From NCBI GenBank assembly GCA_965197585.1, contig OZ240215.1, forward strand, positions 1,728,001 to 1,792,000: a DNA stretch of 64,000 bases, written 5' to 3'. A program made the translations under genes and the position numbers. Origin of the DNA: Dehalococcoidia bacterium (GTDB taxonomy: Bacteria > Chloroflexota > Dehalococcoidia > Plut-88900). Positions 151 to 802 of this stretch are shown here, piece after piece; within the stretch, counting starts at the first letter, position 1; each line of letters opens with the position of its first letter. Under the pieces are notes generated by a model, which worked only from the letters and a program-made list of their open reading frames with translations, made no database searches and was not told the DNA's origin.

Positions 151-802
151 GTGTGACACCAACCCCTTGACCCAAGCAAAACACTTGTACTATATTCACT
201 CCCGACCGGCCAGTCACCCACCCTAAACCCAAGGAGGAACCATAACCCAGGGGGAAACCCAGCCCCGTCCCACATAGCAGAAGACTCAACGTCCAAGCCC
301 ATCCCAACGGCCCACGCGCCGCCCCACGGCTCAAGCGAAAGCCGCCATCTCCTCACCCCACGGGTCCCCTGTACCCTTCCCTGGTCCCTAGGCGATGGAA
401 GGCCCATCGACTCTAAGCAGCATGTAGGCTTGCGAGACCGGCCTACTCGACGCACCTCTCACCCGGCGCGTTCGAGTCAACGCTATGCGCATAGCCCGCG
501 AATATACGGGGCCCTCCAATGCAGGGCCCGCCAGGGGCCTTCGTGCCCCCGGCTCTGACTCCACCGTCGTTCCCTTCGGAGATTCCCACCCCCCAGCGGC
601 GGAAGTTGAGTCGTACTCCCATCCCTCCGAGATGGTCGAGTAGCGTCTTGCGGACGAGACACCCCGCCTCTCTCGTCCGCCTCAGTAAAGACACGTGGGG
701 TAATCGCAGGCTGGCCTCCCGCCCCTGCCCAAGAGTCCCGGACCTTCCGTCGCCTTCCCCCTCCAAAAAACAAACAACGAACCCAAACCCCACAACCGAA
801 TA
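151..802 (+). ncRNA. Putative large structured ncRNA, copy 1 of a 3-copy family (includes promoter; transcript probably starts ~202)
   Basis: Shares identical blocks with 18941-19667 and 56944-57633. Long-range helix 391-404 (GGCGATGGAAGGCC) pairs with 740-754 (GGACCTTCCGTCGCC), extended by GACTCT/AGAGTC. Has a cUUCGg loop and no conserved ORF. Confidence 0.75.
167..196 (+). promoter_or_regulatory. Sigma70-type promoter TTGACC-N18-TATATT with LexA-box-like AAAACACTTGTACT (178-191)
   Basis: Identical spacing and -10 in all three copies. The 14-mer resembles the Chloroflexi/Gram-positive LexA box AGAAC-N4-GTTCT. Confidence 0.6.

Follow-up and report, generated by a model that had tools for sequence, protein, structure and literature searches.

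The window analysed here, 64,000 nucleotides of a Dehalococcoidia genome (G000:C1:1728001-1792000, within a single 3.43-Mb contig), contains three related intergenic regions, which we call copies A, B and C in order of position. Our results support, with a probability of about 0.6, the notion that these regions are copies of a transposase-less mobile DNA element, non-autonomous and IS481-like, that carries a promoter and a structured-RNA cargo. The first-pass annotation had read them as three independently transcribed, paralogous RNA genes of the OLE/ROOL/GOLLD kind, with no terminal inverted repeat (TIR) or target-site duplication (TSD). We found instead TIRs, TSDs, more than 50 copies and a presence/absence polymorphism among related species. 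The element belongs to a known kind, the non-autonomous DDE transposons; it is unusual in its size and promoter/RNA cargo, in a targeting that is phased to the -35 hexamer of host promoters, and in a cargo domain that outlasts the element ends in conservation. In the following, G000 is the genome of the window, G001 to G008 are the eight other species of its genus (g1), and L001 and similar labels are element loci.

The limits of the element can be seen by comparison of its copies. Two copies, the closest pair, agree at 96% between -18 (18 nt ahead of GTGACA) and +727, and the sequences beyond this span are unrelated. The copies end in imperfect inverted repeats, TGATCCCGTTCACATAGAGGGGTGACA on the left and TGTCACTAATCTACCGAACGAGTACA on the right, the right end being TGTACTCGTTCGGTAGATTAGTGACA when read inward. 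The consensus left and right ends, drawn from 16 and 13 copies, are equal at 18/27 positions with one gap and have GTT..TAGA..GTGACA in common; the tips are TGATCC... and ...GTACA, i.e. TG...CA, with a duplication of 5-6 bp. The right-end block is nearly restricted to the element, since 21 of its 22 motif matches in the genome lie behind a copy. Among the 13 copies with both ends, the flanking 6-mers are identical in six and differ by one mismatch in three more, and none of 20000 permutations reached this 9/13. The last duplicated base is always T, which leaves two readings of the duplication: 6 bp, or 5 bp with tips TG...CA. Scanning the genome for the end motif identified 14 left and 14 right ends along with 50 further matches, three of which are exact left-end sequences.

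Empty sites were also found. The site of copy B is filled in G000, G002 and G005 and empty in G001, G003 and G007; the two flanks in G003 share an overlap of exactly 5 nt, and the empty sites carry one ACCCCT in place of the CCCCCT-element-CCCCCT of G000. At the copy A site, G002 and G005 have the element and G001 lacks it; in G001 homology resumes right after the host -35 hexamer, and the intergenic region is too diverged for the junction itself to be placed. The first-pass annotation had named an IS (insertion sequence) or MITE (miniature inverted-repeat transposable element) end as evidence against its own interpretation, and inverted-repeat ends, duplications and empty sites are what these comparisons returned. 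That we are dealing with a mobile element bounded by TIRs and TSDs is very probable.

Some single loci deserve mention. At G000:C1:659310-660680 an unrelated 1.3-kb IS, with a 423-aa open reading frame (ORF), separates the GTGACA motif of an element copy from its -35 hexamer, and at 937282 an exact left end is parted from its promoter by ~220 nt of nested repeats. At G000:C1:3404967 a solo left end, GATCCCGTTCACATAGAGGGGTGACATCACCCCC, abuts the -35 hexamer of the groES-groEL promoter, behind which lies a CIRCE-like inverted repeat; the solo end may be what a deletion between the -35 hexamers of element and host left behind.

The element is far more abundant than the three copies of the window suggested to the first-pass annotation. 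Its 260-nt 5' module has 63 nhmmer matches in the 3.43-Mb genome, with the GGCGATGG motif in place in 54 of them, and a closing helix of at least 8 bp is present in 52 copies, where it encloses 325-553 nt in discrete length classes. The element has no conserved ORF and no transposase ORF. At roughly 750 nt a copy, the 52 copies make up an estimated 1% or so of the genome. By BLAST, the element was found in 8/8 other species of the genus and was not found in three other genera of the family (one of them with 80% completeness only) or in 29 further families of this class. Consistently, a covariance model of the 5' domain (R1) matched in 6/151 genomes of the class, all of genus g1, and an exact-pattern scan of species representatives returned at least 91 matches, all of which, among the matches listed, lie in 8 records named 'MAG: Dehalococcoidia bacterium'. 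A full-text literature search found no element of this sort. Copy B is 830 nt long, and the element in general is of about this length when free of nested repeats; as MITEs are usually shorter than ~500 bp, the term 'mobile insertion cassette' fits better. The copies lie mostly on the + strand at 0.06-2.55 Mb and mostly on the - strand at 2.68-3.41 Mb of G000; the + strand of the contig has 1,056,597 C and 975,422 G, and the replichores may be very unequal.

The regions as first annotated span promoter to tail only. The DNA element is wider, from 18920/1 to 19750 in copy B and, in copy A, from a left end ~176 nt before the window. The parts of the three copies, in window positions, are as follows.

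about 176 nt before window position 1 (L001:1174), + strand: left inverted-repeat remnant of copy A, CCCGTTCAC... (coordinate by hand)
1 to 150, + strand: interior of copy A upstream of its promoter, with nested small repeats (sister-locus alignment, sequence read)
151 to 159, + strand: GTGTGACAC of copy A, the GTGACA motif on the inner side of the left inverted repeat, 7 nt before the -35 (conservation jump in 54 copies; motif also in the right end)
167 to 196, + strand: promoter P1 of copy A, TTGACC, 18 nt, TATATT (10/12; 0.1 expected in shuffles)
231 to 242, + strand: Shine-Dalgarno-like AAGGAGGAACCA of copy A, no start codon after it (invariance in 53/53)
243 to 390, + strand: domain 1 of copy A, helices P1, P4a, P4b and P2 and hairpin P3 (model R1, alignment A4, pair counts)
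391 to 402, + strand: 5' strand of the closing helix of copy A, GGCGATGGAAGG
403 to 742, + strand: subfamily-specific variable domain 2 of copy A (clustering into at least 9 types; no excess of G-U over A-C)
743 to 754, + strand: 3' strand of the closing helix of copy A, CCTTCCGTCGCC
755 to 802, + strand: C/A-rich, G-poor tail of copy A, ending CACAACCGAATA
803 to 845, + strand: degenerate right end of copy A (to about 840) and putative target CCGCG (841-845) abutting the host -35 (by eye; left counterpart CCACG, 4/5; weak)
846 to 875, + strand: host promoter of the downstream TPR gene, TTGACT, 18 nt, TAAAAT, right after copy A
18915 to 18920, no strand: left target duplication of copy B, CCCCCT, 5 or 6 bp (single-copy ACCCCT in G003)
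18920 to 18946, + strand: left TIR of copy B, TGATCCCGTTCACATAGAGGAGTGACA
18955 to 18984, + strand: promoter P1 of copy B, TTGACA, 18 nt, TATATT (11/12)
18992 to 19001, + strand: 5'-proximal palindrome or hairpin of copy B, GGTCTAGACC (by eye)
19020 to 19031, + strand: Shine-Dalgarno-like AAGGAGGAACCA of copy B
19032 to 19189, + strand: domain 1 of copy B, with an extra mini-hairpin insert, GTCCCCCTACGGAGGAC, at 19123-19139
19190 to 19205, + strand: 5' strand of the closing helix of copy B
19206 to 19604, + strand: variable domain 2 of copy B (the G005 ortholog has another middle part)
19605 to 19619, + strand: 3' strand of the closing helix of copy B
19620 to 19669, + strand: C/A-rich tail of copy B
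19670 to 19721, + strand: two TCCGCC-NNNN-GGNGGA hairpin units and an A-rich stretch in copy B
19722 to 19750, + strand: right TIR of copy B, GTGTGTCACTAATCTATTGAACGAATACA
19751 to 19756, no strand: right target duplication of copy B, CCCCCT
56944 to 56951, + strand: TGTGACAC motif of copy C upstream of the -35 hexamer
56959 to 56988, + strand: promoter P1 of copy C, TTGACC, 18 nt, TATATT (10/12)
57023 to 57034, + strand: Shine-Dalgarno-like AAGGAGGAACCA of copy C
57035 to 57183, + strand: domain 1 of copy C (L013)
57184 to 57199, + strand: 5' strand of the closing helix of copy C
57200 to 57569, + strand: variable domain 2 of copy C, of a type found also behind the 'family 2' 5' domain
57570 to 57585, + strand: 3' strand of the closing helix of copy C
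57586 to 57633, + strand: C/A-rich tail of copy C; the right end was not identified and other repeats follow

Each window copy opens with a sigma-70-like promoter that scores 10-11/12, where 0.1-0.3 such sites are expected in shuffled sequence. Reading and alignment confirmed that seven blocks (AAGGAGGAACCA, GACTCAAC, AGCCCATCCCAA, GGCTCAAGCGAAA, CCGCCATCTCCTCA, ACCCTTCCC and AGGCGATGGA) follow each other in the same order on the + strand of all three regions, as the first-pass annotation had described. The AAGGAGG of the AAGGAGGAACCA block is invariant in 53/53 aligned copies from 9 species, as are several unpaired blocks, and in copies A, B and C no start codon follows it. In the most divergent species (G004, G006 and G008) BLAST matches begin at AAGGAGG and not at the promoter, and promoter and end sequences are visibly different; thus, the 5' domain outranks both the promoter and the element ends in conservation. 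Between promoter and AAGGAGG, a 5'-proximal palindrome differs by copy (GGTCTAGACC in copy B; GTTCGAAC, CAGTTCGAACTG and GTTCGCGAAC in others, by eye).

The fold of the roughly 150-nt domain 1 was derived by hand as a nested structure, and model R1 and alignment A4 were built on it. Helix P1 is CAGGGAAG/CTTCCCTG, also TAGGGAAG/CTTCCCTA and GGGGGAA/TTCCCCC; helices P4a and P4b are CAC..GACCC/GGGTC..GTG, also AGCC..GGCC/GGCC..GGCT; helix P2 is GAGGA/TCCTC; and hairpin P3 occurs as GGCC/GGCC, GGGCGGC/GCCGCCC, GAGCGGC/GCCGCTC, GGGCAGC/GCTGCCC, GGCCG/CGGCC and GGTCG/CGACC. In the R1-fitted alignment (68 copies, 64 of them distinct, from 9 species) 91.8% of cells are paired, against 46-69% when partners are slid, and double changes occur in 16/25 pairs, amounting to 87 cells against 24 expected; none of 500 shuffles reached any of five measures. 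A MAFFT alignment of 39 copies of one subtype gave 90.3% of cells paired against 35-53% with slid partners. RNAalifold run on MAFFT alignments yielded fragments only, because the variable hairpins are misaligned, and minimum-free-energy folds of single copies agree only on the closing helix. We regard the R1-fitted pair counts as good but not final support for this fold, and on balance we lean towards a constraint on domain 1 at the RNA level. To this extent the first-pass annotation was right: a conserved, structured, non-coding 5' domain with compensatory pair changes and its own promoter is supported. It was also right that no known RNA family is present, as an Rfam search of the 64-kb window gave 0 matches at gathering score, OLE, ROOL, GOLLD, HEARO, raiA, group II intron, RNase P, tmRNA and SRP included; the best sub-threshold scores on the three regions, 18.9-21.6 bits against gathering scores of 43-49, are noise. 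Tandem partial units of the domain 1 interior (model positions 34-104) are present in G004 (C1:1019093-1019259, 1364927-1365104, 883537-883694, 987906-988072 and 1689136-1689302).

The long-range helix that had been proposed to close the larger domain is found in all three copies. It lies at 391-402/743-754 in copy A with one G-U, at 19190-19205/19605-19619 in copy B with one bulged A, and at 57184-57199/57570-57585 in copy C with two G-U. In its first 8 bp, 18 cells are G-U and 2 are A-C; the mismatches point to pairing on the + strand, the events being few and inherited. The domain 2 that it encloses (330-550 nt) behaves differently. Clustering separates it into at least 9 unrelated sequence types, which contain tandem duplications and recur behind a different 5' domain ('family 2'), and in its predicted + strand helices 58 sites are G-U, 72 are A-C and 95 carry other mismatches, that is, no RNA-level constraint is detected. 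No partner of GACTCAAC or AGCCCATCCCAA within domain 2 is conserved across subfamilies, and BLAST of domain 2 against the genome matched no genes, only other repeat copies and 'family 2'. Moreover, the ortholog of copy B in G005 (G005:C1:2587423-2590871 against window 17795-21273) has the same ends and flanks and another domain 2, which suggests exchange between copies at a fixed locus. We take domain 2 to be an insert that can be exchanged, carried on the end of a conserved stem. The 350-420-nt domain to which the RNA of the first-pass annotation owed its 'large' size displays no constraint at the RNA level and is swapped between copies even at an orthologous locus. Behind the tail, no intrinsic terminator was detected on the + strand, nor within copies A, B and C.

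'Family 2' itself lies outside the window (L075-L077; G000:C1 62999, 505514, 1445777, 3022202, 3062813, 3386674 and others). It has the GTGACA motif, promoter and domain 2 types of the element and a related closing helix (CATGGAAGGTCCCCGGAC/GTCCGGGACCTTCCATC), with another 5' domain. Several smaller repeats are associated with the element. One is a mini hairpin unit, TCCGCC-NNNN-GGNGGA, whose motif is matched 158 times genome-wide (in the window at 19123-19139 and 19680-19711); it sits inside domain 1 of some copies (copy B, L014, L015 and L026) and occurs one to three times past the tail in many. Small repeat families, such as GTAGGGGCGACCGGCCGGTCGCC and the TCTCCCCCTCTCCC...GGGAGAGGGGGA hairpins, fill intergenic regions (window 1-150, 57640-57670 and many loci) and are often found nested in the stretch that leads from the element's left end to its promoter. 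A near-perfect palindrome of 48 nt, GATATATGAGCCATGTTGC...GCAACATGGCTCATATATC, with a G-rich block behind it, lies at window 56830-56877 and also upstream of G000:C1:1249458, so that the upstream regions of two element copies have it in common.

The likely relatives of the element were sought among the ISs of the same genome. An IS present in 19 copies encodes a 320-aa transposase with Pfam domains rve_3, rve and rve_2 and ends in TGTAAGTGTTAGGTAATTCGTTGACAGA; a second one, in 3 copies, likewise has rve domains. The best NCBIfam match of the 19-copy IS is IS481 at 184 bits, and the 3-copy IS reaches 124 bits, where the curated cutoff is 224. The right end of the element agrees with the left end of the 19-copy IS at 18/28 ungapped positions, which 1 of 20000 shuffles reached, and with that of the second IS at 15/28 (23 of 20000). 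The motif common to all three is GTT, 3-4 nt, TA(G/A)(A/T), 5 nt, GACA. As the exact tips differ, neither IS is a proven autonomous partner.

The target geometry of the element recurs in the second IS. In 22 right flanks of the element the first five bases are variable and positions 6-10 read T21 T19 G18 A16 C15, with a -10-like TAnnnT 17-18 nt past the TTGAC; the insertions sit 5 bp upstream of a host TTGAC -35 hexamer. In both intact copies of the second IS, the end is followed, by eye, by a 5-bp duplication (CACTG, GAGCG) and then by TTGACA. It might therefore be that this group of transposases reads a (T)TGACA-like motif in its own ends as well as in its targets, which would explain both the phasing and the orientation of the insertions. 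The second IS lies in the window at 11939-12889 (- strand), in a copy that differs at its 3' end from the two intact ones (G000:C1:2227660-2228550 and 491719-492609). The 19-copy IS (e.g. C1:1007874-1008836) targets a small hairpin repeat, GTCATTCC...GGAATC, where it duplicates 5 bp (ATTCC), and several of its copies lie 125-215 nt upstream of element copies. A transposase-like gene in 7 copies (G000:C1:1396238-1397185 and 3412493-3413440 among them), a candidate member of the IS110 family from a look at its N-terminus alone, ends in two cases 155-157 nt ahead of an element copy that has the same orientation.

The surroundings of the element were counted with our own crude ORF-based gene calls. 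All 52 copies lie between genes; 42 have the orientation of the downstream gene and 32 have a divergent gene upstream. The 20 downstream proteins examined, out of 41, show no functional theme (they include MFS transporters, flavoproteins, Lgt, deformylase, arginase, RibF, ZnuA, TPR and others), and copies also stand immediately before a tRNA-Pro gene and, in G001, before a 5S rRNA gene. The coherent set of downstream genes that a riboswitch or other gene-specific cis-regulatory leader would have was not seen among these. That the downstream genes of the window copies have promoters of their own, as had been stated, is true of copy A (846-875) and of copy C (57845-57873) and not of copy B, which landed between a host promoter (18874-18901) and its gene, with no promoter-like site between copy B and that gene. 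Elsewhere in G000, a multi-gene block with integrase-like genes occurs in 3-4 near-identical copies (C1 about 250-257, 367-374, 806-811 and 2646-2653 kb) and is possibly an integrated conjugative or phage-like element.

Some information on expression came from contigs of 4 RNA libraries from 3 studies, which cover interior parts of the element in pieces between L001:1633 and 2110. Contig depth sums over copies and organisms, and an uncovered part means no evidence; the promoter bin (L001:1465-1586) and the downstream gene (from L001:2197) are nearly uncovered and were not counted for transcript start or end. None of these contigs joins the element to the downstream gene. One run (X3) is labelled sponge metagenome, and we draw no claim on habitat from it. 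The cover is only compatible with transcription, and transcription from promoter P1 of the element appears likely to us.

Taken together, these data would fit the following mechanism. An IS481-like DDE transposase would move the element in trans, recognising ends of the form TG..GTT-N3/4-TAGA-N5-GTGACA, and would insert it with a 5-bp (or 6-bp) target duplication, preferably 5 bp upstream of a TTGAC(A) -35 hexamer. Landing there would co-orient the element with the host gene and leave the core promoter intact. A transcript from the near-consensus sigma-70 promoter would start with a short hairpin and then AAGGAGG without a start codon, which together might act as a 5' stabiliser of the kind called STAB-SD (stabilising Shine-Dalgarno). 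The 150-nt folded domain, the stem (GGCGAUGG/CCAUCGCC) with the exchangeable 330-550-nt insert at its tip, and the C/A-rich, G-poor tail, by its look a putative Rho loading site, would follow. Since no intrinsic terminator was detected, the RNA would either end by Rho, at about 600-650 nt, or run into the host gene as a long leader. Read-through would give that gene a second promoter and a long leader, and downstream of copy B, where the gene has no promoter-like site of its own, it would be required if the gene is expressed. We tentatively propose, at less than even odds, that the main role of the element is that of a cis-acting promoter/leader cassette for the neighbouring gene; as for the RNA, a stabilised leader or promoter cassette is the most likely form and a trans-acting RNA is less likely.

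Several observations weigh against this interpretation or parts of it. Both transposases score below the NCBIfam curated cutoff for IS481, and the two ISs match the element only in a sub-terminal motif, the second ending in CG..CG and not in TG..CA. In G000, to which this search was confined, no autonomous element with identical termini was found and none of the 50 other motif matches flanks a transposase. Copy B is not adjacent to a TTGAC, and 10/52 copies are not co-oriented with the downstream gene. The R1-fitted covariation depends on a model-fitted alignment and largely on differences among a few subtypes related by descent; in the MAFFT alignment of one subtype, double changes occur in 4/25 pairs, a result reached by 52/500 shuffles. 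To this may be added the pair counts of domain 2 given above. AAGGAGG is no more than a putative stabiliser and the tail no more than a putative Rho site; the RNA-library contigs show no strand, ends or level, and DNA can be present in such libraries.

The main rival is that the element is a passive MITE, in which promoter and 'RNA structure' are relics or by-products and conservation is due to recent amplification and gene conversion. Much of what we describe suits such an element: the TIRs, TSDs and empty sites, a domain 2 that is neutral to pairing and swapped between copies, covariation within a subtype that does not exceed shuffles, and downstream genes without a common theme. Domain 1 fits it poorly, being conserved across 9 species beyond the promoter and ends that transposition needs. 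This conservation is patchy, with invariant single-stranded blocks beside hairpins that change in a compensatory way (e.g. GGCC/GGCC, GAGCGGC/GCCGCTC and GGTCG/CGACC), double changes affect 16/25 of the domain 1 pairs, and at the 8-bp base of the closing helix nearly every mismatch is a + strand G-U. We hold a passive element to be unlikely, if the most serious of the alternatives.

A cargo with a function in trans appears less probable still. Here domain 1 would be a protein-binding or ribonucleoprotein RNA that serves the transposon (by regulating or assisting an IS481-like transposase) or the host and that is amplified by the mobile element; multicopy HEARO RNA, which reportedly proved to be the omega-RNA of IscB, offers a loose analogy. 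The extreme invariance of the core, unpaired AAGGAGG, CTCAAC, GCCCA.C and CAAGC included, the strong promoter of its own, the tandem partial units of the inner core in G004 and the lack of matches to known RNA families would all agree with it. No protein gene is linked to the element in cis, however, and complementarity to target or ends was not found in a comparison by eye; DDE transposases of this kind are not known to use RNA, and the RNA-library contigs give neither transcript ends nor strand.

Free-standing ncRNA (non-coding RNA) genes of the OLE/ROOL/GOLLD class, immobile and arisen by few duplications, would explain promoter, structure, size and absence of an ORF and are nevertheless very improbable in view of more than 50 copies, inverted-repeat ends with duplications, clean empty sites in sister species, -35-phased insertion and the lack of an Rfam match; we take the empty site of G003, with flanks that overlap by exactly the duplicated bases, as refuting them.

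No coding signal was found, in agreement with the first-pass annotation. There is no conserved ORF, open frames differing between copies; in each of the 7 subfamilies the variable columns are spread evenly over the codon positions, and the lengths of most indels are not divisible by 3. In one subfamily a single frame stays free of stops for 208-219 codons, and the 13 copies of 'family 2' have AAGGAG, 5 nt and ATG, with a frame open for at least 220 codons in 12 of them; this frame shows no bias among codon positions (28/31/34) and matches no Pfam family, stops being rare in sequence so rich in C, and another long frame overlaps it on that strand. A protein-coding cassette, in which the Shine-Dalgarno-like motif would drive a small or unusual protein, could thus draw on these open frames and on a perfect AAGGAGG about 30 nt from the predicted 5' end, but with no start codon behind the motif in family 1, frames that differ between copies and flat codon positions its probability is close to nil.

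Returning to the mobile element with promoter and RNA cargo, we see three consequences. It is a cautionary case for ncRNA discovery, as a convincing 'large structured RNA' would be transposon cargo, mostly an unconstrained insert. It keeps host promoters and adds a co-directional consensus promoter with a long leader, across a whole genus of uncultured Dehalococcoidia; if IS481-like transposases truly read TTGACA-like targets, this would be a simple mechanism for spreading promoters. Finally, a 150-nt domain that is better conserved than the parts needed for transposition calls for explanation. It is doubtful, though worth stating, that domain 1 is a new functional RNA amplified by a DDE transposon, either as a mobile riboregulator or as an RNA cofactor or regulator of a -35-homing IS481-like transposase. 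Were it a riboregulator, a common signal acting on domain 1 and the Rho-like tail would set read-through into ~40 unrelated genes, a regulon built by a transposon.

Among known systems, MITEs and mobile insertion cassettes derived from IS481 are the closest by their features: no transposase of their own, imperfect TIRs with TG...CA, a short duplication, many copies and empty sites, to which the likeness of the ends to those of resident IS481-like elements can be added. They differ in that our element is ~830 nt long, has an inward-facing consensus promoter, a structured RNA domain and a 5-bp phasing to the -35, and has no identical-tip partner among those found. The multicopy structured RNAs that ride on mobile elements (HEARO/omega-RNA of IscB, reRNA of TnpB and bridge RNA of IS110) are similar in this respect; they adjoin their nuclease or recombinase in elements without classical TIR or TSD, whereas the present element is of DDE type, with no protein gene and no Rfam match. 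OLE, ROOL, GOLLD and raiA have in common with it a length of several hundred nt, a promoter and no ORF; they differ in that no covariance model matches at gathering score, in being present in one or few copies per genome, and in that most of the length of our element is an unconstrained exchangeable insert. The Correia (Neisseria), BOX (pneumococcal) and ERIC (enterobacterial) repeats, as usually described, are also intergenic, multicopy and modular, with promoters, co-transcription and RNA secondary structure, and BOX elements even have conserved end modules around a variable middle. By the same descriptions they measure 100-300 nt and lack a conserved 150-nt multi-helix domain, and they are not known for -35-phased targeting or a Shine-Dalgarno-like 5' motif. 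For that motif, a close parallel is the STAB-SD of leaders such as that of cryIIIA in Bacillus thuringiensis, where a perfect Shine-Dalgarno sequence likewise stands near the 5' end of a long untranslated RNA and is not followed by a start codon.

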